Assembly: GCA_036392495.1 (NCBI GenBank)
Contig: DASVXV010000163.1
Location: forward strand, 2,951-66,950
DNA length: 64,000 nucleotides
Source: Pyrinomonadaceae bacterium
GTDB taxonomy: Bacteria; Acidobacteriota; Blastocatellia; Pyrinomonadales; Pyrinomonadaceae
Direction of reading: 5' to 3'
Below, one piece after another: positions 3,748 through 63,961 of this stretch. A program made the position numbers and the translations under genes. The notes under the pieces were generated by a model that was not told the DNA's origin, made no database searches, and saw only the letters and a list, made by a program, of their open reading frames with translations. Position 1 is the stretch's first letter. Every line of letters starts with the position of its first letter.

Positions 3748-4431
3748 TTATCTAACGTAGATGACGGGCAGGCTCGCGCGCGCCTTGCGGGGCGTGCCGC
3801 CCTTTCCGGCTTGATTCGGCGAATTATTCCCTCTTCCTTTGCGCCGCTTGCTCCACTGACGCGCCAGGCGCTCCAACTCCGATTTACTGGATTCCGGATC
3901 AACGAGCGTGAGCCAGAGCGGGATGGGAAGCCACGCCCACGCTGCGCCGTAAACCTCCTCATTCAACTGCTCTGTGCGGTGCTCGGCGCGCGCCTGCAAG
4001 CTCGCGGGCGGCAAGTCCTCCCAACGCTCATAACAGGCATGCTGAATGCACGGGGCGGGCTTGGCGCGGGCATGCACCAGACAGCCGATTGAGGGTTCGT
4101 AGAGCGGGCAGGAATATGTCTGCCCAAAGGTATCTCCAGAGGCGCTCAGCTGGAAACGCGACACGGCTTCCCGCGCCCGTTGATAAACGGCACGCTTCGC
4201 AGCCTGGCTCAAACGGGGCGTGCGCGCTAAGGTTTCGCGGATGGCGACGGCCTCAAGCCTCGTGACGTTCACGTTGACGAAATGCGCGTCCGTACAGCAG
4301 ACGCCGCGCGTCGGACAGGTCTTGCAATCGGAGGCCGCGTGCTCGTAGTTGACTTTAATGAAGCGCTGGTAAGAGGTCTTCAAACGCTGCAACCGCGCCA
4401 GCGCTTTCGGTTCGGACAGTTTTCGGCTCAT
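3748..4431 (-). CDS. YkgJ-family cysteine-cluster (CxxCxxxGxCC) protein
   Basis: CKTCPTRGVCC motif plus downstream Cys residues. The start overlaps the tlyA stop as ATGA. Confidence 0.7.
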   Translation of the reverse strand: MSRKLSEPKALARLQRLKTSYQRFIKVNYEHAASDCKTCPTRGVCCTDAHFVNVNVTRLEAVAIRETLARTPRLSQAAKRAVYQRAREAVSRFQLSASGDTFGQTYSCPLYEPSIGCLVHARAKPAPCIQHACYERWEDLPPASLQARAEHRTEQLNEEVYGAAWAWLPIPLWLTLVDPESSKSELERLARQWSKRRKGRGNNSPNQAGKGGTPRKARASLPVIYVR

Positions 4432-13908: not shown

Positions 13909-13999
13909 GGAGATGTGGCCGAGTGGCTGAAGGCGGCGGTTTGCTAAACCGTTATGGGTCAAAAGCCCATCACAGGTTCGAATCCTGTCATCTCCGCCA
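13909..13999 (+). tRNA. tRNA-Ser (anticodon GCU), encoded CCA
   Basis: Acceptor GGAGATG/CATCTCC, anticodon stem GCGGT/ACCGT with loop TTGCTAA, long variable arm, T-arm ACAGG-TTCGAAT-CCTGT, then GCCA. Confidence 0.92.
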
Positions 14000-14007
14000 G
14001 AATTTGA

Positions 14008-14080
14008 AACGATGAACGCGGAACGATGAACGATGAATGTGGGATTAGAATTCATCGCTCATCGTTCCGCGTTCATCATT
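14008..14080. repeat. heptad-stem hairpin (GAACGAT units), 31-bp stem with 2 mismatches
   Basis: aacgatgaacgcggaacgatgaacgatgaat / gtgggattaga / attcatcgctcatcgttccgcgttcatcatt, between tRNA-Ser and gltX. Confidence 0.9.
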
Positions 14081-14088
14081 AGAAGAAC

Positions 14089-19187: not shown

Positions 19188-19275
19188 AAAAGTCTGGAGT
19201 CTGGAGTCTGGAGTCTGGAGTCAAAAGACAGAAACCATTCTTTGGCTTCGGACTCCAGACTCCAGACTCCAGACT
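19188..19275. repeat. heptad-stem hairpin, family B (GGAGTCT units)
   Basis: aaaagtctggagtctggagtctggagtctggagtc / loop / gactccagactccagactccagact. Abuts the hutI ATG. Confidence 0.93.
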
Positions 19276-28785: not shown

Positions 28786-29091
28786 ATGAAATTCCCAGGC
28801 GGGCTGAACATTCAGCAGATGATGAAGCAGGCGCAACAGATGCAGGAGAAGATGGCGCGCGAGATGGAGGAGCTGGTCGTCGAGGCTTCCTCGGGCGGAG
28901 GCGTCGTCACGGTCCAGATGAAGGGCACGCACGAGGTCGTGGGACTCAAGATTGACCCGGAGGCCGTCAAGGAAGACGACATCGAGATGCTTCAGGACAT
29001 GATCGTCGCCGCCGTCAACGAAGCGAACCGCAAGATTGATGAAGCCATGAAAGGCAAACTGGGCGGCATGCTCCCGCCAGGACTTCTCTAA
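28786..29091 (+). CDS. ybaB: YbaB/EbfC family nucleoid-associated protein
   Basis: [23 protein letters not shown]..., 101 aa. The track ORF start at 28630 is over-extended. Confidence 0.9.
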
Positions 29092-29575
29092 AAAAGGGGT
29101 CGGGGGCCAGGGGTCGGGGGCCGGAAAGCGTGGAGGCGTGTATGGCTATCAATAGTTTCCGCGATCTCAGGGTCTGGCAGGCAGGGATGGAGTTAGTAGA
29201 ACAGGTATATCTTCTAACGCAGGCATTCCCTAAACAGGAGATTTATGGATTAACCAGTCAGATTCAGCGCGCTGCCGTTTCCGTCCCTTCAAATATTGCT
29301 GAAGGACACACGAGAGAACATAGCAAAGAATTCTTACACCACTTGTCAATGGCTCAAGCGTCCTTGGCTGAGCTAGAAACTCAATTGGAAATAGCGGCGC
29401 GCTTGAAGTATATCTTACCCGATAAGCTTGAGCGGACTCTTCAGCAAGTTGCTTCATTAGGCAAGCAACTTTATGCCCTGCGGAATGCTTTAATGAGAGG
29501 ATACAAAGAATAGTGGTCGGATGTTAATAGAAGCCTTTCACCGGCCCCTGGCCCCTGGCCCCCGACCCCTTTTTA
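29091..29575. repeat. 34-bp heptad inverted repeat (family F) enclosing the four-helix-bundle gene
   Basis: Left arm aaaaaggggtcgggggccaggggtcgggggccgg (29091-29124). Right arm ccggcccctggcccctggcccccgaccccttttt (29541-29574). 31 of 34 positions complementary, 416-nt 'loop'. Confidence 0.9.
29142..29513 (+). CDS. four-helix-bundle protein (23S rRNA intervening-sequence protein family, TIGR02436-like)
   Basis: FRDLRVWQ..., YGLTSQIQRAAVSVPSNIAEG, EFLHHLSMAQASLAELETQL are hallmark motifs. ATG at 29142 after GGAGG. Clearly AT-richer codon usage than the flanking genes. Confidence 0.85.
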   Translation: MAINSFRDLRVWQAGMELVEQVYLLTQAFPKQEIYGLTSQIQRAAVSVPSNIAEGHTREHSKEFLHHLSMAQASLAELETQLEIAARLKYILPDKLERTLQQVASLGKQLYALRNALMRGYKE

Positions 29576-30193: not shown

Positions 30194-30288
30194 AAGGCAA
30201 AAGGGAAAAGGTAAAAGGCAAAAGGGAAGACCAGAGAGCGCATCTTTCGTCCTCACTTTTGCCTTTTTACTTTTTCCTTTTGCCTTTC
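30193..30288. repeat. heptad-stem hairpin, family C (AAAAGGN units)
   Basis: gaaggcaaaagggaaaaggtaaaaggcaaaaggg / loop / cttttgcctttttactttttccttttgcctttc, between convergent recR and the PRTase gene. Confidence 0.88.
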
Positions 30289-31508: not shown

Positions 31509-31565
31509 ATAAAGGCAAAAGGAAAAAGGTAAAAGGCAAAACCGGGTGTTGGGCGCTTGCCTTTA
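31509..31565. repeat. family C heptad arm with truncated partner
   Basis: ataaaggcaaaaggaaaaaggtaaaaggcaaaa followed only by ttgccttt. Also about 85% complementary to the solo arm at 35371-35403. Confidence 0.7.
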
Positions 31566-35370: not shown

Positions 35371-35403
35371 CTTTTCCTTTTACGTTTTTCCGTTTACCTT
35401 TAT
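35371..35403. repeat. solo family C heptad arm
   Basis: cttttccttttacgtttttccgtttacctttat has no adjacent partner. 28 of 33 positions complementary to 31509-31541. Confidence 0.65.
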
Positions 35404-35473: not shown

Positions 35474-36535
35474 ATGTCAGCCAACACCACAGATACAGTC
35501 ACAGAGAACGCCCAGGCGCCGGCGGCCGAACAACCCGGCGTGCCGAAGAAGATCACGAACGCGCAGACGGTCTGCAACGTGAAGAACGAGAAGGGCAAGC
35601 TCTGCAACGGTCACCTGAAGCAGTTGGGGACCGGAGGCGAGCCCGCGGAGATTCACCTGCGCGGCGACGACGTGCTCTTCAAGTGCCAGTCGTGCGGCAC
35701 GCTCTACATGGGGCCGCCCCTGGGGCACGTGCGCGATCCCTACAAGCAGCAACGATTCGTCGAGAACGAACTCGCGGCGCTTCTACAGGCCGCGGGCGGG
35801 ACGCTTCCGGCGATTGTGAAGAACGAGCGCGGCGTCTTCGTGCTGGCCGAAGAGACGGCGCACCACGCGCCCGCCCCGAAGTCCGCGGCGGCGAAACCGG
35901 CAGCGGCTCCAGCAGCCGAGAAGAAAGAGGAAAGTACTGCTGCGGCCAAGCCCGCACCCGCAGAGGCGAAGCCCGCCGCAGCGCCCGCCGCACAGCTGGC
36001 TCCGTCGCAGACTTCGCTCGGACCGATTCCGGGGGCGGATGGTCCTGTGCCCGGTGAGACCTTCGAGCAGAAGCTCGTGCGTTTGAGGGCAGTCGTCGCT
36101 GAGGCCAAGCGGCGTAAAGAACTGTTCGGCGGAGGCGAAGCTGCGGCGGGCGCGGAGGCGAAGCCCGCTGGGCAAACACGCCCGACGGCCGCCTCAACTT
36201 CGGGCACGGATTCATCCGCGCAGGCGGACGCGCATCGTCCGGCGGCGGAAGCGCAGGCCGCTACGGGCCAGGCTTCGGCAGCGCCTTTGAGCCCCGCTGC
36301 GGCGACAGCCTCGCCCGCTGCCGGAGCGGAGACGCCCGCAGATTTAGCGCCCGATGCCGCCCCTGCCGCGAAGCAACCAGCGCGCAAGGCAACGCCCGGC
36401 GGTACACTCTACCGCGCCCCCTTCGACACGGGCCCAGTGCCTGGCGAGACTCACGAGCAGAAGATCGAAAGGCTGCGTGGCGTCGTCGCCGCCGCCAAAG
36501 AGCGCGCGGAAAGAGAAGGAAGATCGAAGGAATAG
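35474..36535 (+). CDS. hypothetical protein: N-terminal zinc-ribbon-like Cys pairs, Ala/Pro-rich low-complexity region, duplicated C-terminal helix motif
   Basis: CNVKNEKGKLCNGH...CQSCG. Internal repeat GPVPGETFEQKLVRLRAVVAEAKRR / GPVPGETHEQKIERLRGVVAAAKER. Confidence 0.6.
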   Translation: MSANTTDTVTENAQAPAAEQPGVPKKITNAQTVCNVKNEKGKLCNGHLKQLGTGGEPAEIHLRGDDVLFKCQSCGTLYMGPPLGHVRDPYKQQRFVENELAALLQAAGGTLPAIVKNERGVFVLAEETAHHAPAPKSAAAKPAAAPAAEKKEESTAAAKPAPAEAKPAAAPAAQLAPSQTSLGPIPGADGPVPGETFEQKLVRLRAVVAEAKRRKELFGGGEAAAGAEAKPAGQTRPTAASTSGTDSSAQADAHRPAAEAQAATGQASAAPLSPAAATASPAAGAETPADLAPDAAPAAKQPARKATPGGTLYRAPFDTGPVPGETHEQKIERLRGVVAAAKERAEREGRSKE

Positions 36536-36572
36536 TTCGATTGCGGAATGCGGATTTCGGATTGCGGATTTA
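36534..36572. repeat. solo heptad arm (GCGGATT/TCGGATT units); 23-bp perfect inverted partner at 38785-38807
   Basis: agttcgattgcggaatgcggatt (36534-36556) is the exact reverse complement of 38785-38807. Confidence 0.9.
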
Positions 36573-36584
36573 AGAAAGCGGGAG

Positions 36585-36886
36585 CATAAGGTTTCAGCCG
36601 TCGAAGACGGCGGCGGCATAAAGCCCCGTGCGCGAGCACGGGGGTTGAGCACCCCAACAAAAAGAGAAAGCCCGCGCCAGCGGGCGGCAGCATAAAGCCC
36701 AGGGCGTCAGCCCTGGGTAACAAGTCCCGGTTTGAGACGCCAGCCCGCGTGAGCGGGCGACGGCCCTTGAAACGCGAGCGGGTGTGCGCGGGCTGCCGCC
36801 CATTTCATGGGCTGAATATTCCTCACTGCCTGTAACCCAGGGCTGACGCCCTGGGCTTTATGCCGTCGCCCGCTGGCGCGGGCTGG
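36585..36886. repeat. cluster of REP-like two-hairpin units
   Basis: Units of the form GCCCGC-N4-GCGGGC ... ATAAAGCC ... CCCAGGG-N5-CCCTGGG (or CCCCGTGC..GCACGGGG). 36669-36722 and 36831-36884 are inverted copies (about 50 of 54 positions). Confidence 0.85.
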
Positions 36887-36889
36887 TGG

Positions 36890-38569
36890 CTACATTGCGC
36901 GTAGCCTCTTCAACATCTGCACGGCGTTTCCGTTTGATGGGTCCAGTTCGAGCGACTTCTCGTAGTTCTTGATCGCCAGCTCCTTCATCCCCTTGTTCAT
37001 GTAGGCTTCGCCCAGGCTGTCCCAGACGTTTGAGGATTGCGGGTAGGCTTCCGTGTTCAGCTTGAAGATTTCGATGGCCTGATCCAGGCGCTTCATCCCC
37101 ATCAGACGATAGCCGAAGCTGTTCATAGTGTTCTCGACGTTGACGTATGCGTTGGCCGGGTCGGCCTTGAACTCCCGAAAGCGTTTGGCCGCCTGCGCGA
37201 CATCATTCGCGTCGAGCGCTTCCATCAACTGTTCGGTCAGCTCTTTTTTCGGGCTGTAGGCGAAGATGGCTTTCAGCGCCGGGTCGTTGTTTGAAAAGTA
37301 GTCTGTGGAAGTCAACTCGGCCGCAACCTGCGGCCCTGTCCAGATGCGGCGGTCACGCGGGTCAAGGTTCTGCCACCAGAGGGTCGAGGCGCGCACGACC
37401 AGTCCGCTGTTCGGCAACTCGATGCGCGCCGGGTCGCCGTAGAAGTTGACGTTCTCGCCCGTCGGCTCACCGACAAAAATCGTGTTCGTATATTTCTCAA
37501 GCTCGTTGACCAGGTTCTGCGCGGCGGAGTAGGTGTAGCGGCTGATGATGGTGAAGAGTTTCCCGCGCACGTCCACCTTCGACTTGATCAGGCCGACGAC
37601 GAGCGGCTTGTTGAGATAGTTGTTCCCGCCCCCGTTCCAGCGCAGGTCCAGGATGAAGCGCTCGACCGGGTTCTTCTCCACGAAGTCGAAGAGGCGGTGG
37701 CTGAACTGCGCGACCGTCTCATTCTCTTTGTCGGCCACGCCGTTGAATTGAACATAGACTGTCTTTGAATCCGCCAGGTATTCGAACCAGAAGAGGTTGT
37801 CTGTGTCTTTGAGCCACAGCGGCGTCGGGGCACGGGCTGCGTCGCGCGCATCAACCCAGCCGTCCGGCTTGATGTAGCGGCGAGTGTGCCCGGCCGTCGG
37901 CGCTGGCCGCACGAACGGCTTCAGCTCGACCGTCACCTGCTTGCCATCTTTTTCGACGACATACGTTGCGCTCTCCATGTTCTCGACAATACCGACGGTG
38001 TTGAGTACTTCCGGCGAGACCAGGTACATCATGGCCGCGCCCTTGAGGCCGAACTCGTTCTGCTGGTCGTGGAAGACCAGACCCTTAATCTTATCGAAAG
38101 CCTCGGCCGCGCTCGCGTTCCCGATTTTCAGGACGCGCCCGCCGACCACATCAGCGTGTTCGCGTGCGGCGGCGGTGACGAACAATCCGTCCTTGAAGAA
38201 ATAGAGGGTCAGTGGATAGGAGCGAAATCCTATCTTCGGGTCGAAGAGCAGGCCGTTGATGCCCGTGTGCCCGTCCTGCACTAAAGCCACGATGCGCGCC
38301 AGCTCGACGATGATCTGGTGGCGCGCCAGCGTCGGAATCCGCTCCTCCAGGTTTTTGACCGCCGCGTCAAACTGCTCGCGCTTCGCCGTGTGAAATAGAT
38401 TCTTGTGGCGCTGAGGCATCTCCGCGGCCAGGTGGCGCAAATCCGCGCGCCACTTCTCTGCCTCCGCGCTACTCACGGCCGAGATGACGGACCGGTTGCT
38501 CTGCGCCAGAAGCGATTGGGCGGAAAGAAGCAGACAGAAGATTAGAAATAATCTGTTAATTTTTGACAT
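36890..38569 (-). CDS. S41-like peptidase domain protein with C-terminal TPR repeats, secreted
   Basis: ATG at 38569 after GAGGAG gives signal peptide MSKINRLFLIFCLLLSAQSLLAQ. S41/tricorn-C1-like core (LDLRWNGGGN, YTYSAAQ). TPR tail (WDSLGEAYMNKGMKELAIKNYEKSLELDP). Confidence 0.75.
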   Translation of the reverse strand: MSKINRLFLIFCLLLSAQSLLAQSNRSVISAVSSAEAEKWRADLRHLAAEMPQRHKNLFHTAKREQFDAAVKNLEERIPTLARHQIIVELARIVALVQDGHTGINGLLFDPKIGFRSYPLTLYFFKDGLFVTAAAREHADVVGGRVLKIGNASAAEAFDKIKGLVFHDQQNEFGLKGAAMMYLVSPEVLNTVGIVENMESATYVVEKDGKQVTVELKPFVRPAPTAGHTRRYIKPDGWVDARDAARAPTPLWLKDTDNLFWFEYLADSKTVYVQFNGVADKENETVAQFSHRLFDFVEKNPVERFILDLRWNGGGNNYLNKPLVVGLIKSKVDVRGKLFTIISRYTYSAAQNLVNELEKYTNTIFVGEPTGENVNFYGDPARIELPNSGLVVRASTLWWQNLDPRDRRIWTGPQVAAELTSTDYFSNNDPALKAIFAYSPKKELTEQLMEALDANDVAQAAKRFREFKADPANAYVNVENTMNSFGYRLMGMKRLDQAIEIFKLNTEAYPQSSNVWDSLGEAYMNKGMKELAIKNYEKSLELDPSNGNAVQMLKRLRAM

Positions 38570-38657
38570 CGTAACTTCTCCTCGAATGAGTATGATTATT
38601 GCGCTTTGCAATTGAATGCGCCTGCTGCGCGAGAATTGTAGGGGCAGAGACTGTCCC

Positions 38658-38807
38658 ATTTCGGATTTCGGATTTCGGAATGAAAGAACAGAAGGCAGAA
38701 GGCACAAGGCAGAAGGCAGTCAAGGCAAAACGCTCCTGGTTTTTACTGCCTACTGCTTTCTGCCTTCTGCCTTCTGCTTTTCTCAATCCGCATTCCGCAA
38801 TCGAACT
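38658..38807. repeat. nested hairpins: CAGAAGG-unit hairpin inside the loop of a GGATTTC/GCGGAAT-unit hairpin
   Basis: Outer arms 38658-38682 / 38785-38807 (imperfect). Inner arms 38683-38720 / 38745-38782 (about 31 of 37), with loop ...ctcctggttttt. Confidence 0.8.
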
Positions 38808-38879
38808 GCGATCCCTTTATCTAGAGAACACCGCGAAGATATTTTTTGTGACACTTATTTGCGGCAACGACTGCGGCGC

Positions 38880-39368
38880 TTAACTTTGCCCGGCCACCCA
38901 GTAATCCGGCCGCTCCTGCGTCTGTGGATCGTGTCTCTCCATCCAGCGCTCCGGGCGTTTCAATTCGACGAATCCGAACCGGCGGTAAAGCTCGTGCGCG
39001 TCTTTCGTCGCCAGAACCCAGCGTCGAAACCCTTGCAGTTGAGGATGCCTGATGATTGTTTCGACGAGCCACGTCCCCAACCCTCGGCCGCGAAATTCTT
39101 CGAGGACGAATACGTCAGCCAGCCAGGCAAAAGTTGCATAATCCGTGATGACGCGCGCGAACCCTATCTGGCGCTCGCCTTCGTAGAGACCGAAAGCCAG
39201 AGAATTCTCTACCGAGCGCCTGATTGTTTCCAGGCTCCTGCCCGTAGCCCAGTACGAGGAGTTGCTCAGGTAATCGCGAACTACGTCCAGGTCCAGCAGC
39301 GCCCTGTCCGTGCTGATCAGATAATCCCCGCGCCTGTATTCTTCCATCTTCACCCTCCAGCCATTCAT
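38880..39368 (-). CDS. GNAT family N-acetyltransferase
   Basis: FRGRGLGTWLVE motif. ATG at 39368 overlaps the upstream gene's stop as ATGA. Confidence 0.8.
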   Translation of the reverse strand: MNGWRVKMEEYRRGDYLISTDRALLDLDVVRDYLSNSSYWATGRSLETIRRSVENSLAFGLYEGERQIGFARVITDYATFAWLADVFVLEEFRGRGLGTWLVETIIRHPQLQGFRRWVLATKDAHELYRRFGFVELKRPERWMERHDPQTQERPDYWVAGQS

Positions 39369-41651: not shown

Positions 41652-41751
41652 AAGTCTGGAGTCTGGAGTCTCGGAGTCTGGAGTCAAAGGCTGTAAAAAC
41701 AATCTGCTTTTGACCTCGGACTCCAGACTCCAGACTCCAGACTCCAGACTT
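41650..41751. repeat. heptad-stem hairpin, family B
   Basis: aaaagtctggagtctggagtctcggagtctggagtc / loop / cggactccagactccagactccagactccagactt, between pstS and pstC. Confidence 0.93.
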
Positions 41752-41755
41752 AAAA

Positions 41756-42769
41756 ATGGTGAGTCCTCAGCCTAAAGCTCCATCTCCCGCGGATGAATTT
41801 GGCGCGCGGGCGCGCGTCTGGAACTGGCGGGCTCTGCTCTCCCCGACGGGAAGCCGCGGCGATGCCATCTTTCGCATCCTGCTCTTTCTGGCCGCGCTCG
41901 TCCTGCTCCTTCTGGTCTCCTCAATGATCCTCGCGATGTGGGCTAACTCGCGCCCCTCGATTGATCGTTTCGGCTGGGAGTTCGTGTCCGGGCAAGCCTG
42001 GAACCCCGTCACGGAGGAGTTCGGCGCGCTGCCCTTCATCTACGGCACTCTGGTTTCGTCGCTCATCGCGCTCGTCATCGCCGTCCCGCTCTCGCTCGGC
42101 ATCGCTATCTTTCTGGTCGAGCAAGCCCCGCGCGCGTTGGCGCGCCCCGTTGCATTTCTGGTCGAGCTGCTGGCTTCGATTCCTTCGGTCGTCTACGGCC
42201 TCTGGGGCATCTTCGTGCTTGCGCCTCTGCTGCGTGAGCACGTCGAGCCGTTCCTGGCGCGCTATTTCGGCTGGCTTCCGCTCTTTCGCGGCACGCCGAC
42301 AGGCATAGGGCTCTTCACGGGCGGAATCATCCTCGCCATCATGATCACGCCGATCATCTCCGCGGTCGTGCGCGACGTGCTGGCCGCAGTGCCCGTCTCG
42401 CAGCGCGAGGCCGCGCTCGCTTTAGGCGCGACCCGCTGGGAGACGACGCGCGTCGTTCTGGCGAACGCTTCGTCCGGAATCGCCGGCGCGATCATTCTCG
42501 GCCTCGGGCGCGCTATCGGAGAGACGATGGCCGTGACGATGGTCATCGGCAATCGCCCCGAAATCAGCGCCTCGCTTTTCGACCCGTCCTACACCATCGC
42601 CTCCGTCATCGCCAACGAGTTTACGGAAGCGACCGACAAGCTTTACCTGAGCGCGCTCGTCGAGATCGGGTTGATTCTCTTTCTGGTGACTTTCATCGTC
42701 AACGGCGCGGCCAAGCTGCTCGTCTGGAGCGTGACGCGCGGGACGAGCGGGACAGCGAGGGCTGCGTGA
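41756..42769 (+). CDS. pstC: phosphate ABC transporter permease PstC
   Basis: EAALALGATRWET permease EAA motif, 6+ TM segments. Confidence 0.92.
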   Translation: MVSPQPKAPSPADEFGARARVWNWRALLSPTGSRGDAIFRILLFLAALVLLLLVSSMILAMWANSRPSIDRFGWEFVSGQAWNPVTEEFGALPFIYGTLVSSLIALVIAVPLSLGIAIFLVEQAPRALARPVAFLVELLASIPSVVYGLWGIFVLAPLLREHVEPFLARYFGWLPLFRGTPTGIGLFTGGIILAIMITPIISAVVRDVLAAVPVSQREAALALGATRWETTRVVLANASSGIAGAIILGLGRAIGETMAVTMVIGNRPEISASLFDPSYTIASVIANEFTEATDKLYLSALVEIGLILFLVTFIVNGAAKLLVWSVTRGTSGTARAA

Positions 42770-43611
42770 TGGAGATAGCGGCTCATCTCAACAATCGTCG
42801 GCGGCTGACGAATACCATCATGACGAGCCTGACGGCGCTGTGCGCCCTCATCGCCGTCACGGTCCTCTTAATCATTCTCGGCTACATAGCCTATCAAGGC
42901 ATCACTTCGATCAACTGGCAGTTCCTGACAGACACGCCGAAGCCCGTCGGCGAAGGCGGCGGCATCGGCCACGCGATTACGGGCACGCTGCTGCTGCTAC
43001 TGGTGGCCTCTCTGATCGGGATGCCCATCGGCATCGCCGCCGGAATCTATCTGGCGGAGTTCGGCACTGGCTGGTTCGCGGGTGCTGTCCGCTTCGTCGC
43101 GGACACCCTGACGGGCGTCCCTTCGATCATCGTCGGCGTCTTCGTCTATACGTTGATCGTGCTCCCGATGAAGCATTACTCCGGTCTCGCAGGGGCGATT
43201 GCGCTGGCCGTCGTGATGATCCCGATTGTGACGCGCACGACCGAAGAGATGATCCGGCTCGTCCCACATTCCCTGCGCGAAGGTGCGCTCGCGCTCGGCG
43301 CCCCGCAATGGAGAGTGACGCTCGGCGTGGTGCTCCCGGCGGCCAGCTCCGGAATCGCTACGGGGGCGATGCTGGCCGTCGCGCGCGTCTCCGGCGAGAC
43401 CGCGCCGCTTTTGTTCACGGCCTTCGGCAGCCGTTTTTTCAACATCTACATGGATCAGCCGATGGCCTCGTTGACCGTGCAGATTTACACCTACGCCATC
43501 TCGCCTTACGACGAATGGCACGCGCAGGCATGGGCCGCCACGCTCGTCCTGATGGCCCTGATCCTCGCGATAAATATCATCGTGCGTTTCTTTACGAGGA
43601 AGAAATTTTAG
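42766..43611 (+). CDS. pstA: phosphate ABC transporter permease PstA
   Basis: EGALALGAPQWRV EAA motif. 4-nt overlap with pstC. Confidence 0.92.
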   Translation: MMEIAAHLNNRRRLTNTIMTSLTALCALIAVTVLLIILGYIAYQGITSINWQFLTDTPKPVGEGGGIGHAITGTLLLLLVASLIGMPIGIAAGIYLAEFGTGWFAGAVRFVADTLTGVPSIIVGVFVYTLIVLPMKHYSGLAGAIALAVVMIPIVTRTTEEMIRLVPHSLREGALALGAPQWRVTLGVVLPAASSGIATGAMLAVARVSGETAPLLFTAFGSRFFNIYMDQPMASLTVQIYTYAISPYDEWHAQAWAATLVLMALILAINIIVRFFTRKKF

Positions 43612-43688
43612 TCGTGAATCGTAAATCGTGAATCGTAAATCGAACAAAGCTGGTTTTCTCTATTCACGATTTACGATTCACGATTCAC
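43612..43688. repeat. heptad-stem hairpin, family A
   Basis: tcgtgaatcgtaaatcgtgaatcgtaaatcg / aacaaagctggttttctct / attcacgatttacgattcacgattcac, between pstA and pstB. Confidence 0.9.
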
Positions 43689-43696
43689 TAGCTTTT

Positions 43697-44551
43697 ATGT
43701 CCGTGCTAACTCCAATGACTGTACCGAAGCCGCTTGTGCCCGAAGCGCCTGCTGAACAACTGAGCCCGCCGGAGCGAAAGCAACCGGCCGCCCCCGAGGT
43801 CAAGGTCAGCGTGCGCAACCTGAATTTTTTCTACGGTCATGTGCCCGCACTGCACAACATCTCGCTGAGCATCCCCGAACGCCTGGTGATGGCTTTCATC
43901 GGCCCATCCGGCTGCGGCAAATCAACGTTCCTGCGCACGCTCAACCGTATGAACGACACGATTCCGGGCGCGCGTGCCAAAGGAGAGGTTTTGATTGACG
44001 GGCACGACATCTATGCGCCGGGAACAGATGTGGTCGAGCTGCGCCGCAAGGTCGGGATGGTCTTCCAGAAGTCGAACCCGTTTCCGAAATCCATCTTCGA
44101 CAATGTCGCCTACGGGCTCCGCATCAACCGCATGGCGGCGAGCAAGGCGGACCTGAGCGAGCGCGTCGAGAAGGCCCTTTCCGACGCAGCCCTCTGGCCT
44201 GAAGTGAAGGACCGGCTGAAAACTTCCGCGCTCGGACTCTCCGGCGGTCAGCAGCAGCGCCTCTGCATCGCGCGGGCGCTCGCGGTCCGCCCGGAAGTCA
44301 TCCTGATGGACGAGCCGGCGTCGGCGCTCGACCCGATTGCGACGCAGAAGATCGAAGAGCTGATCGTCAAGCTGAAGAAGGATTACACCATCATCATCGT
44401 CACGCACAACATGCAGCAGGCCGCGCGCGTCTCGGACCAGACGGCTTTCTTCTGGCTCGGCAAGCTCGTCGAAGTCAACAGCACCGAGAAGATTTTCACG
44501 GCCCCGCACGAGAAGCTGACGGAGGATTACATCACGGGGAGGTTTGGATAA
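43697..44551 (+). CDS. pstB: phosphate ABC transporter ATP-binding protein
   Basis: GPSGCGKST Walker [10 protein letters not shown] signature, ILMDEP Walker B. Start placed at ATG 43697, downstream of the hairpin. Confidence 0.93.
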
Positions 44552-44554
44552 GAA

Positions 44555-44634
44555 CAGTGGTCGGTGGTCGGTGGTCAGTAGTCAGTTAAAAACTGATTTC
44601 TCACTGACCACTGACCACCGACCACTGACCACTG
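44555..44634. repeat. heptad-stem hairpin (GTGGTCR units), 32-bp stem with 2 mismatches
   Basis: cagtggtcggtggtcggtggtcagtagtcagt / taaaaactgatttctc / actgaccactgaccaccgaccactgaccactg. Confidence 0.93.
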
Positions 44635-44638
44635 CTTT

Positions 44639-45298
44639 ATGGAACTACACAGATTGCTTGACCGCGAACTGGACGCTTTGCGCGACCGATTGCTGCTGCT
44701 GGGCGGCGAGACGGAGACGGCGCTCCGGCGCGCCATCTACGCCCTCGCCGAGCGCGACAGCGCGACGGCGCGCGCGGTGCTCGACGAGGACGACGCGATA
44801 GACACCCTGGAGGTCGAGATAGATCGGCTCTGCGTTGACATCATCGCGCTCCGGCAGCCGGCGGCCCGCGACCTGCGCTTTGTCATTTCGGTCGCGAAGA
44901 TCACGCCCATCCTGGAACGGATCGCCGACCACGCCTGCAACATCGCGCGCGCCGCCATTGACCTCAACGACGAGCCGCAGTTGAAGACTTACGTTGATCT
45001 GCCCGGCATGGCCGACCACGCCGCGGCCATGCTGCGCGCCGCGCTCGACGCCTTCACCTCGAACAACCCTGAGGCGGCGCGCGGCGTGATCGCACGCGAC
45101 GACGAGATAGATGAGATTTACAACCGCATCTTTCACGACCTGATTGACCTGATGACCGGAGACCCGACCACAACGACCCGTGCGGCGCGGCTGCTCTTTG
45201 TCGCCAAACACATCGAGCGCATCGCCGATTACGCCACGGACATCTGCGAACTGACGGTCTATATGACGGAAGCAAAGTTTATTAAGCACAGTAATTGA
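44639..45298 (+). CDS. phoU: phosphate signalling complex protein PhoU
   Basis: Two PhoU repeats (ERIADHACNIAR, ERIADYATDICE). Confidence 0.93.
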   Translation: MELHRLLDRELDALRDRLLLLGGETETALRRAIYALAERDSATARAVLDEDDAIDTLEVEIDRLCVDIIALRQPAARDLRFVISVAKITPILERIADHACNIARAAIDLNDEPQLKTYVDLPGMADHAAAMLRAALDAFTSNNPEAARGVIARDDEIDEIYNRIFHDLIDLMTGDPTTTTRAARLLFVAKHIERIADYATDICELTVYMTEAKFIKHSN

Positions 45299-45299
45299 T

Positions 45300-45395
45300 A
45301 GTCCGGAGTCTGGAGTCTTGGAGTCTGGAGTCAAAGGCCAAAACAATTTGCTTTTGACATCGGACTCCAGACTCTGAGACTCCGGACTCCAGACT
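45300..45395. repeat. heptad-stem hairpin, family B
   Basis: agtccggagtctggagtcttggagtctggagtc / loop / cggactccagactctgagactccggactccagact. Confidence 0.92.
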
Positions 45396-45401
45396 CATCT
45401 T

Positions 45402-46112
45402 ATGCCGAAGACTATCTTGATTATCGAGGATGACCCGGACATTGCGGAGAGCCTGCGCTACAACCTTGAGCGCGAGGGCCTGGCGGCGCAGGTTGCCGGG
45501 ACTGGCGAAAAGGGTTTGAGCGCTGCGCTCGATGCGAAGGGTCCACCCGCGCTCGTGATTCTGGACCTGATGTTGCCGGGCATGAGCGGCACGGAGCTTT
45601 GCCGCCGCTTGCGGCGCGAACCCGCCACTCGCCGCACGCCGATCATTATGCTGACGGCGCGCGTCTCGGAAGCAGACCGCATCGGAGGCTTCGATCTGGG
45701 CGCGGATGATTACATCACCAAGCCGTTCTCCGTCGGCGAGGTGCTGGCGCGCGTGCGCGCTGTCCTCAGGCGGGTTGACGAGAGCTCGCCGGCTCGCTAC
45801 GAGGACGGGCGACTCACGATTGATTTCGCGGACATGCACGTCGCCTGCGACGGAATGAACGTCAAGCTGACGCGCAAGGAGTTTGCGCTGCTCTCCGCGC
45901 TGGCACGCAGCGCGGGCCGCGTCGCCACGCGCCAACGCCTGCTCGACGACGTCTGGGGCCATCAATACTACGGTGACATGCGCACGCTGGACGTGCACAT
46001 CCGCCGCCTCCGCCAAAAGCTAGGCCCCTGCGGCGACTGCATCGAAACCTTCGTCGGCGTCGGCTACCGCTTCGTCGGCTGCACGGGGGAAACAGTAACA
46101 GGTGACGAGTGA
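45402..46112 (+). CDS. phoB: OmpR/PhoB-family response regulator
   Basis: Receiver domain (LVILDLMLPGMSG) plus winged-helix domain (LTRKEFALLSAL...VGVGYRF). No cognate kinase gene adjacent. Confidence 0.85.
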   Translation: MPKTILIIEDDPDIAESLRYNLEREGLAAQVAGTGEKGLSAALDAKGPPALVILDLMLPGMSGTELCRRLRREPATRRTPIIMLTARVSEADRIGGFDLGADDYITKPFSVGEVLARVRAVLRRVDESSPARYEDGRLTIDFADMHVACDGMNVKLTRKEFALLSALARSAGRVATRQRLLDDVWGHQYYGDMRTLDVHIRRLRQKLGPCGDCIETFVGVGYRFVGCTGETVTGDE

Positions 46113-46165
46113 CAAGTGACGAGCAGAGACGGTTTTTCTTGTCACCTGTCACTCGTCACCTGTTA
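46094..46165. repeat. heptad-stem hairpin (GTGACRA units) whose left arm overlaps the last codons of phoB
   Basis: gtaacaggtgacgagtgacaagtgacgag / cagagacggtttttcttg-type loop / cttgtcacctgtcactcgtcacctgttac. Confidence 0.85.
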
Positions 46166-55462: not shown

Positions 55463-55484
55463 GAAAGCGAAAGCTGTATTATTC

Positions 55485-55556
55485 AGCCCGCGTGAGCGGG
55501 CGACAGACGATCATTTGTCAGCATCTGTCGCCCGCTCACGCGGGCTTTATTGTTTT
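55485..55556 (+). terminator. REP-like 23-bp perfect hairpin plus T-tract
   Basis: agcccgcgtgagcgggcgacaga / 16-nt loop / tctgtcgcccgctcacgcgggct followed by ttattgttttt. Confidence 0.65.
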
Positions 55557-60270: not shown

Positions 60271-60420
60271 TGAGCCGGCTTCGCCCGGGCACGTGCGAGC
60301 AGATTGCTCATCGCATGACTATATCCTGCCGCCCGATTAAGGGCTAAGAGATTCTGGAACTCAGCGTCGCCTGAGGCGTCTTTCTAACGCCAGTATCTTT
60401 TTTCGAAAAGGGGTAAATAA

Positions 60421-60637
60421 CCCAAGTTGCCAGTTATCAATTGCCACTAGCTTCAGCTAGTGGTTCAGGGTGCTCTAGTTCTTTCGGCTTGAGCCGAACT
60501 GTGAGGCTCAAGCCGAAAGGAACTGGATGTTATGTGTCATTCGGCTCAAGCCGATCCTTTTCAACCATCTGTGTCCACTAGCTGAAGCTAGTGGCAATTG
60601 AAATGATTTCCAAACAGCTATAACTGGCAACTTGGGT
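60421..60637. mobile_element. MITE-like nested palindromic element with 45-bp terminal inverted repeats and 7-bp direct-repeat flanks
   Basis: TIRs are perfect 19 + 26 bp (aacccaagttgccagttat + caattgccactagcttcagctagtgg) against 60575-60638. TAAATAA occurs at 60414-60420 and 60638-60644. The interior carries three copies of tcggc-ttga/tcaa-gccga. Confidence 0.5.
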
Positions 60638-60645
60638 TAAATAAG

Positions 60646-63921: not shown

Positions 63922-63941
63922 GTAGCGCAATATGACAGTAG

Positions 63942-63961
63942 CCCAGGGCGTAAGCCCTGGG
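63942..63961. repeat. REP-like hairpin CCCAGGG-N6-CCCTGGG
   Basis: Same hairpin module as at 36700-36718 and 36836-36854. Confidence 0.7.

Follow-up and report, generated by a model that had tools for sequence, protein, structure and literature searches.

The window analysed here, a stretch of 64,000 nt from a Pyrinomonadaceae bacterium (contig DASVXV010000163.1, positions 2,951 to 66,950), contains a gene for a 559-aa peptidase of the S41 family with a C-terminal TPR region (Pfam), located at 36890-38569 on the minus strand between a GNAT gene and a convergent gene of 353 codons (35474-36535). An earlier note on this DNA had pointed out that the reverse complement of 38785-38807 is found, letter for letter, at 36534-36556 (AGTTCGATTGCGGAATGCGGATT), and that these two 23-nt arms bracket the peptidase gene together with a cluster of repetitive extragenic palindromic (REP)-like sequences at 36596-36889; both statements are confirmed. 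The origin of this inverted match is considered here, along with the family of hairpins, built from tandem 7-nt units (hereafter heptads), to which its arms belong.

Among the seven neighbouring open reading frames (ORFs), Pfam recognises ADH, S41/TPR, GNAT, EamA and PBP, two being without a match, and finds no recombinase domain in any of the seven. The ORFs adjoining the elements, to which the scan was limited, include no transposase. A sigma-70 promoter and terminator scan of 36300-39000 returned nothing beyond shuffled expectation, and no direct repeat indicative of a target-site duplication lies outside the 23-nt arms, the flanks reading GATCGAAGGAAT before the left arm and GCGATCCCTTTA after the right one.

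Anatomy of the CGGATT-type elements

The 23-nt arm is made up of a degenerate first unit, AGTTCGA, the two full heptads TTGCGGA and ATGCGGA, and a final TT. Period 7 is reported by Tandem Repeats Finder at 36539-36570, 38658-38679, 38689-38719 and 38746-38777, as well as for about 30 other arrays of the window. On the left, the 23 nt are the beginning of a longer, CGGATT-type head arm (36534-36575, plus strand) with the successive units AGTTCGA, TTGCGGA, ATGCGGA, TTTCGGA, TTGCGGA and TTTAAGA, which starts within the TAG stop codon (36533-36535) of the upstream 353-aa gene. The unit order TTGCGGA, ATGCGGA, TTTCGGA, TTGCGGA is also present in complete hairpins of Pyrinomonadaceae (loci L007 and L031) and of unassigned metagenome contigs (L136 and L143). 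The head arm is followed at 36576-36595 (plus strand) by what appears to be the remnant of a loop start, which reads TTTAAGAAAGCGGGAGC together with the last unit and, judged by eye against the loop starts of complete copies, fits the loop-proximal motif [TG]ARGARAGC. No 3' arm of this left element was found, a search for complementary units giving no partner before 38785.

The remainder of the convergent spacer is filled by the REP-like palindrome cluster (36596-36889), which includes a 54-nt inverted repeat (36669-36722 and 36831-36884) and folds with z = -10.9. Two of its units (36679-36717 and 36836-36874) and a third one at 63932-63961 reach 29.8-33.4 bits against the Acido-Lenti-1 family of Rfam (RF01687), under the gathering score of 37, and a related unit is found at 55484-55546; these scores suggest that the cluster may be a set of Acido-Lenti-1-like repeats.

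On the right, the head arm (38785-38807, 5' on the minus strand) is located 73 nt downstream of the GNAT stop (38880). Its counterpart, the non-head arm (38655-38682; 3' on the minus strand), reads on the plus strand as CCC, three ATTTCGG units and AATG. It matches the head arm imperfectly: complementarity between the two is no more than about 75%, each heptad containing one mismatch (TTTCGGA versus TTGCGGA), and the repeat search did not pair them. The earlier note had placed a complete CAGAAGG-unit hairpin between an arm at 38658-38682 and the right arm, and this hairpin is real; it extends from 38684 to 38781, with arms (38684-38723 and 38742-38781) that are 85% complementary and a loop of 18 nt. 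It replaces the apex of the right element exactly, the outer stem running on through GAAAGAA/TTTTCTC up to the inner hairpin. As RNA, the region 38650-38812 is predicted to form one long stem of about 57 pairs (minimum free energy of -84.2 kcal/mol, z -8.8) in which the outer arms are paired, with bulges; the DNA centroid fold of the same region leaves them unpaired, the inner hairpin alone being robust. Directly next to the non-head arm is a small palindrome with a GTAG head (GTAGGGGCAGAGACTGTCCC, 38638-38657), and a similar sequence (TGTAGGGGCAGGG) lies beside a CGGATT head at about 3810-3830 of locus L129.

Ahead of the loop-start motif, the left head arm is longer than the right one by two heptads (14 nt), their only difference. 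Beyond the 23-mer, a MAFFT alignment of the left element with the minus strand of the right one gave scattered matches only. The resemblance between TAAGAAAGCGGGAGC and GAGAAAAGCAGAAGG was considered as a trace of a nested hairpin shared by both elements and rejected, as the family-wide loop-start motif accounts for it.

Copies of the same head are dispersed far beyond this locus. Without mismatch, the 22-mer GTTCGATTGCGGAATGCGGATT is present in 25 metagenome contigs whose flanks are unrelated; each contig has a single copy, which in every case lies at the outer border of a CGGATT-type array. In complete copies the order is [GTTCGA], TTGCGGA, ATGCGGA, TTTCGGA, TTGCGGA and TT, then a loop that starts with [TG]ARGARAGC, and lastly AATCCGC-type units, so that the GTTCGA head is present on one side only. 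Because complete copies are one-headed in this way, both 23-mers of the window are to be seen as the heads of two elements that face each other. The 22-mer loci amount to 20 distinct ones: eight are simple hairpins, two are nested (L129 and L140), about seven are solo arms devoid of a partner, one (L138) has a distant and irregular partner, and one (L133) carries a four-helix-bundle (4HB) gene with the partner arm 477 nt away; the assignments of L138 and L140 were made by eye. A degenerate pattern of three CGGATT units matched at least 120 contigs of GTDB genomes, versus about nine estimated by chance, with Acidobacteriota, Planctomycetota, Verrucomicrobiota, Bacteroidota, Chloroflexota, Nitrospirota and Desulfobacterota among the matches listed.

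The overlap between an element head and a TAG stop, seen in the window at 36533-36540 (TAGTTCGA), may have parallels in four unrelated loci (L126, L131, L139 and L141), where a TAG-head junction is also present. The head abuts a start codon of the opposite strand in three others (L130, L144 and L145).

The 23-nt arms are thus likely to be the conserved heads of two separate copies, in opposite orientations, of one heptad hairpin subfamily, which flank a peptidase gene that was there ancestrally. The copy on the right (38655-38807, minus strand) is complete, with its head arm, loop-start motif, non-head arm and a CAGAAGG hairpin at its apex, and this composite has propagated as a unit. The left copy (36534-36595) would consist of a head arm and a loop start only, the rest of the spacer being the REP-like cluster, and its 3' arm may have been lost through deletion or REP insertion. 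The enclosed 2.2 kb would then be ordinary chromosome between two repeat copies.

The peptidase locus in related genomes

The peptidase has 2318 homologues, the best non-self one being 78% identical, with names referring to Acidobacteriota or Pyrinomonadaceae. Eight orthologous loci of 12-22 kb each were compared, seven with 74-78% identity in the peptidase and one (L152) with 68%. In L001, L002, L003, L149, L150, L151 and L165, the order of the pst operon with PstS, then EamA, GNAT, the peptidase and a convergent gene of about 340 aa is kept along with the orientations, with one additional gene behind the peptidase in L151. A CGGATT-type array is absent throughout all eight loci; a complete CGGATT hairpin (L031) is found in the genome of L003 (OY969111.1), away from the peptidase locus.

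Other repeats occupy the same two spacers in these relatives. Between the GNAT and peptidase genes, there is a TTTGCGC hairpin in L165, a CACGAA-type hairpin in L149, REP-like palindromes in L001 and L002, and nothing in L003, L150 and L151. Between the peptidase and the convergent gene, L165 has a CAGAATC hairpin, L001 and L002 a GTTCAAC hairpin, L003, L149 and L150 REP-like palindromes, and L151 a plain terminator-like hairpin. The peptidase is therefore a resident gene and not inserted cargo, since it is found in the same place and orientation in seven loci, none of which has either arm, while the repeats around it come and go. No empty site, in which the enclosed segment would be missing, was found among the seven syntenic loci, all of which have the peptidase.

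These comparisons bear on the proposal of the earlier note that such arms can be parted by kilobase cargo. Applied to this locus, an ancestral CGGATT hairpin between the GNAT and 353-aa genes would have taken the peptidase, the REP cluster and a second hairpin into its loop. In its favour, the 23/23 complementarity of the distant arms beats that of the local partner arm, and cargo between heptad arms does exist, in the form of 4HB genes of about 400 bp and of a variable gene island next to this locus (both described below). However, the peptidase is present without either arm in the seven loci just mentioned, an outcome that the earlier note had itself named as refuting its proposal, and its insertion would have to predate the divergence of these relatives, yet the arms are still identical over 23 of 23 positions. 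Furthermore, both 23-mers are heads, when complete elements have only one, and the right arm is already accounted for as part of a complete element, the composite form of which recurs elsewhere, in L140. A single hairpin split by cargo is thus extremely unlikely at the peptidase, and the claim fails for this gene.

The island in question lies between inverted AAAGGNA arrays at 31511-31541 (plus strand) and 35372-35401 (minus strand), which stand beside -10-like boxes of the divergent NUDIX and 353-aa genes, respectively. It contains five genes, for a thioesterase, a racemase, an ADH and two ORFs without confident Pfam assignment. The array on the side of the 353-aa gene is also present in L003, L149, L150, L151 and L165, and that on the NUDIX side in L003, L149, L150 and L151, being degenerate in L165; the genes between the arrays vary from genome to genome, and L001 and L002 lack both arrays and island. 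By hand count, the AAAGGNA arms are identical at about 24 of 31 positions, as compared with 23 of 23 at the peptidase, and judging from this they have diverged as old separated arms should. A case of kilobase-scale cargo is possible at the AAAGGNA arrays, and not at the peptidase.

The arms could also delimit a mobile or invertible block, in which 23-bp inverted repeats would allow the peptidase segment to be flipped by homologous or site-specific recombination. Inverted repeats do flank the gene plus its upstream region, and 23 bp comes close to the shortest match that RecA-dependent recombination needs in E. coli. Nonetheless, the seven neighbouring ORFs carry no recombinase domain, and in all seven syntenic relatives the peptidase has the same position and orientation. 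No contig with both 23-nt arms in any arrangement came out of the metagenome scan, nor any contig of this locus, and 23 other comparable inverted matches in the window would be equal candidates (see below). An invertible segment is accordingly very unlikely, and the arms find no support as the limits of a moving block.

Next to the left element, the 353-aa gene, which has no Pfam match, contains an internal direct repeat of 68 nt (36041-36108 and 36431-36498, 71% identical), and the last 19 residues or so of its product are unaligned with orthologues.

The heptad hairpin family and associated 4HB genes

The window contains about 20 heptad hairpins of about ten unit types in 64 kb, each with four to five tandem heptads, a loop of 15-35 nt and the inverted heptads. 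All are intergenic on a rough gene map, and they often fill the whole gap from a stop codon to the next start. Elements with unit CGTAAAT are found at 1329, 5186, 17037 and 43612, those with AGTCTGG at 19191, 41653 and 45300, and those with AAGGCAA at 30194, 31511 and 35372; single elements have AGTGATG (30919), CAGTGGT (44555), AGTGACA (46094), CAGAAGG (38689), AGGGGTC (29095 and 29543) and AACGATG (14008). Ten of the window hairpins were paired automatically, with predicted folds of -37 to -84 kcal/mol. Rfam has no family for them, the only matches being to generic miRNA-precursor models below threshold. In the operon encoding pstSCAB, phoU and a response regulator (41653-46163), every intercistronic gap has a heptad hairpin; the pst operon of L003 has hairpins at the same gaps, three of them with the same unit (AGTCTGG twice and CAGTGGT once) and the others with a different one. 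By eye, the 5' arm of the window hairpins and of those in L153-L163, whichever strand is read, looks rich in G and A, no heptad having more than one C, and C is abundant in the 3' arm. At 13909-14085, a tRNA-Ser(GCU) is directly followed by the AACGATG-unit hairpin.

Copies of the same unit at unrelated loci have a common order of variant units and share exact matches of 18-39 nt, both direct and inverted. Since each heptad element is also a palindrome, there are 24 cases in the window in which two sites separated by over 200 nt match exactly in inverted orientation, with lengths of 18-39 nt (minimum set at 18 nt). Nearly all of these matches join same-unit heptad hairpins, and the 23-mer pair is one of the 24 and not the longest. 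No further copy of the 23-mer with up to three mismatches was found in the whole window, and none in 100 shuffles. The 23-nt match is thus far above chance for random sequence, yet within the background of the heptad repeat family. The earlier note had allowed that many solo arms would make a 23-bp match unsurprising; solo arms and long exact matches within one family are indeed common, and the match is unsurprising on these grounds. One further exact inverted repeat, of 20 nt and not made of heptads (TAACCCAAGTTGCCAGTTAT), has its arms at 60418-60437 and 60620-60639, with 182 nt between them.

The idea that the pair results from chance or from an assembly artefact has nothing in its favour beyond the shortness of the repeat, and its probability is close to nil: the shuffles gave no match, the repeat family is well populated, gene order agrees with that of relatives, and a 23-nt repeat would be too short for collapse at usual assembly k-mer sizes.

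More weight has to be given to local copying, in which one head arm would recently have been made from the other by gene conversion, template switching during replication or short-range transposition. Nine of the 20 elements have a same-unit neighbour within 4 kb (permutation p of 0.012 for this count, and of 0.10 when the median distance is taken), which hints at local spread or old local duplications, and the two head arms differ only by the 14 nt ahead of the loop-start motif. On the other hand, the occurrence of an identical head in 25 unrelated contigs means that identity alone requires no local event, and the clustered AGTCTGG copies of the pst operon are orthologously old, being at the same positions in L003, so that clustering need not mean recent copying. 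Local copying is on balance improbable, less so than inversion or cargo insertion.

Several points nevertheless weigh against the reading as two separate copies of one subfamily. The three CGGATT-type arms of the window are all found in a 2.3-kb stretch, and the 23/23 identity of the heads exceeds the roughly 75% complementarity of the right element's own arms; this clustering and identity may reflect local copying between the spacers. Mobility is deduced from distribution only; no transposase, target-site duplication or close-strain pair of empty and filled sites was found. In addition, sense and antisense RNA folding of the 11 hairpins with a known direction of transcription gave no consistent asymmetry, and selection could thus act on the DNA instead. 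Finally, the relatives compared are no closer than about 80% amino-acid identity, a distance at which recent rearrangements in this lineage are invisible.

Two separate copies of a dispersed family remain the preferred explanation, and the recurrence of nested hairpins is in line with it. The inner CAGAAGG hairpin of the right element, its loop and both junctions are about 95% identical to L140:3213-3295, within CGGATT arms, and the setting of L140 is unrelated, downstream of a Mur ligase gene and without a tblastn match to window genes; the composite was thus copied as a unit. In L129, a TTTGCGC hairpin lies within CGGATT arms, in L151 a GCAGAGG hairpin lies within another palindrome, and in L124 and L127 a CGGATT hairpin lies within a REP-like palindrome. 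A screen for flank complementarity recovered L140 and L124/L127, with the window as a borderline case, and L129 and L151 were spotted by eye; an array-based screen for nested hairpins gave none, the short outer arms being below its array threshold. The earlier note was therefore right to describe a hairpin inside the loop of another, an arrangement found in other genomes too. It had also proposed that loops are sites of insertion or recombination, and insertion is supported by the recurrent nesting and by the presence of 4HB genes between heptad arms. The elements would be spread through their insertion at the ends of genes and in the apices of hairpins already present.

As for the 4HB genes, the window has one at 29130-29513, assigned to PF05635 (23S rRNA intervening-sequence protein, E 7e-38), inside an element at 29091-29574 with inverted AGGGGYC arms that exactly fills the gap between ybaB and recR. 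In relatives, the same element is found in this gap in L001 and L003, simple hairpins of three other units in L149, L150 and L165, and no spacer in L151. Between the 23-mers of the window there is no 4HB ORF, the content being the peptidase and REPs, and the nested loop has 18 nt. Among loci gathered for other reasons, inverted heptad arrays of various units flank 9 of 11 4HB genes. An independent sample of 12 4HB loci, drawn from 32 plasmid records matched in tblastn and mostly from Nostocales, plus Riemerella, Azospirillum and Gemmatirosa, has inverted heptad or heptad-like arrays in nine cases, direct arrays in two and a single array in one; the arm upstream of the 4HB gene is purine-rich in the sampled loci, as read from their sequences. 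Some units are shared, CAGAAGG/CAGAGGG (Stanieria, PCC 7120) with the window and GGTTCAA (Riemerella) with L001. Overall, the 4HB genes of L153-L164, L011, L017, L022, L083, L115 and L133, from Cyanobacteriota, Bacteroidota, Chloroflexota, Alphaproteobacteria and Acidobacteriota, lie nearly always in short tandem arrays that are mostly of heptads and usually inverted, and these genes of about 400 bp often sit within one operon, as in nrdB-nrdA, cas6-cas4 and cas10-cmr3.

Tentatively, heptad hairpins, both those of the window and the cyanobacterial and Xanthomonas ones compared below, could be ORF-less miniatures of a selfish, cross-phylum family whose full form carries a PF05635 gene, and which would colonise the apices of intercistronic mRNA hairpins, of other heptad hairpins (with nested composites as the result), of rRNA helices (with rRNA intervening sequences as the result) and of RNase P RNA; the 4HB protein would be the factor of the family itself, for instance by binding the heptad stem. 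This proposal is possible, though we would not bet on it.

The inverted match in itself matters little, as its explanation mainly removes a reading in terms of gene capture or of an invertible switch, and a dispersed repeat family produces long exact inverted matches in such genomes as a side effect. It is the family that is notable, because its members occupy intercistronic gaps from end to end, are replaced rapidly at orthologous sites, nest within one another and are, in two independent samples, tightly associated with the widespread and functionally unexplained PF05635 genes.

Comparison with known repeat systems

The closest parallel is with the short tandemly repeated repetitive (STRR) elements of cyanobacteria, where hairpins of 7-bp repeats are present between hupS and hupL; their function is unknown, and roles in transcript stability or translational coupling have been proposed (PMC2670836). 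The elements of the window are like them in having tandem 7-bp units, an intergenic or intercistronic location, several unit types per genome and the capacity to form hairpins, and unlike them in their host, an acidobacterium versus heterocystous cyanobacteria, and in their units. Nostocales, the source of most of the plasmid 4HB loci above, are the organisms classically known for STRRs. Going by the title of a 1997 article by Vioque, STRR sequences are also said to lie inside the RNase P RNA gene.

Heptameric simple sequence repeats (SSRs), GGGAATC in Xanthomonas and GGGGAYT in Nostoc, are intergenic and mostly of four units (Rehm et al. 2015; PMC4692102). In Xanthomonas, 70-75 convergent pairs of close arrays per genome form inverted repeats, and from one close relative to another the arrays of a given intergenic site differ in length and sequence (PMC4692102). 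In contrast to these SSRs, which have a single G-rich unit and were studied as formers of G-quadruplexes, the elements described here have many unit types, most of them not prone to form G-quadruplexes, and their arms mirror each other's variant units. The TAACTGA heptanucleotide repeats of Beggiatoaceae are intergenic as well, abundant near gene boundaries and common to distant lineages (PMC4679880). They stand upstream of start codons as direct repeats, a single set out of 170 being inverted, whereas the heptad elements are inverted.

GTAG- and CGTC-tagged REPs have been described (PMC3733652). A REP is a single imperfect palindrome of 20-40 nt with a tetranucleotide tag, mobilised by a RAYT, whereas heptad elements have arms of tandem heptads and neither a GTAG nor a CGTC tag; both, as also bacterial interspersed mosaic elements, are dispersed intergenic palindromes at gene ends that occur in clusters and act as landing sites for other elements. 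Insertion of the IS1397 type takes place in REP loops. The REP-like, Acido-Lenti-1-like units of the convergent spacer are a family separate from the heptad elements in the same spacer.

The 4HB-containing element at 29091-29574 has the architecture of the intervening sequences (IVSs) of 23S rRNA, with a 4HB gene between inverted arms. The IVS of Coxiella has 428 nt, an S23p 4HB ORF of about 120 aa and a 28-bp terminal stem that is cut by RNase III, and is regarded as selfish and horizontally moving (PMC4990558). Unlike IVSs, the elements flanking the peptidase are in mRNA spacers rather than in rRNA helices, and have no ORF. Salmonella has short IVSs without an ORF, which would be the counterpart of ORF-less hairpins, and to our knowledge a heptad make-up of IVS arms has not been described. 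By analogy with STRRs and IVSs, the transcribed near-perfect stems of 28-35 bp may be intercistronic stem-loops that act as RNase III-type substrates, stabilisers or terminators, and the stem lengths predicted by folding, 28-57 pairs, would be compatible with RNase III cleavage.

In the searchable literature, no description was found of heptad arms around 4HB genes or of heptad hairpins in Acidobacteria, nor of nesting, propagation of composites, conserved head motifs or the 4HB link. If true genome-wide, this link would join STRR heptamers, 23S rRNA IVSs and the S23p family, and give each of them a testable mechanism. Compared with these systems, novelty lies in the host, an acidobacterium, in the conserved motif of the head, in the nested composite that propagates and in the association with PF05635; the hairpin kind itself is already known from STRRs and from Xanthomonas.

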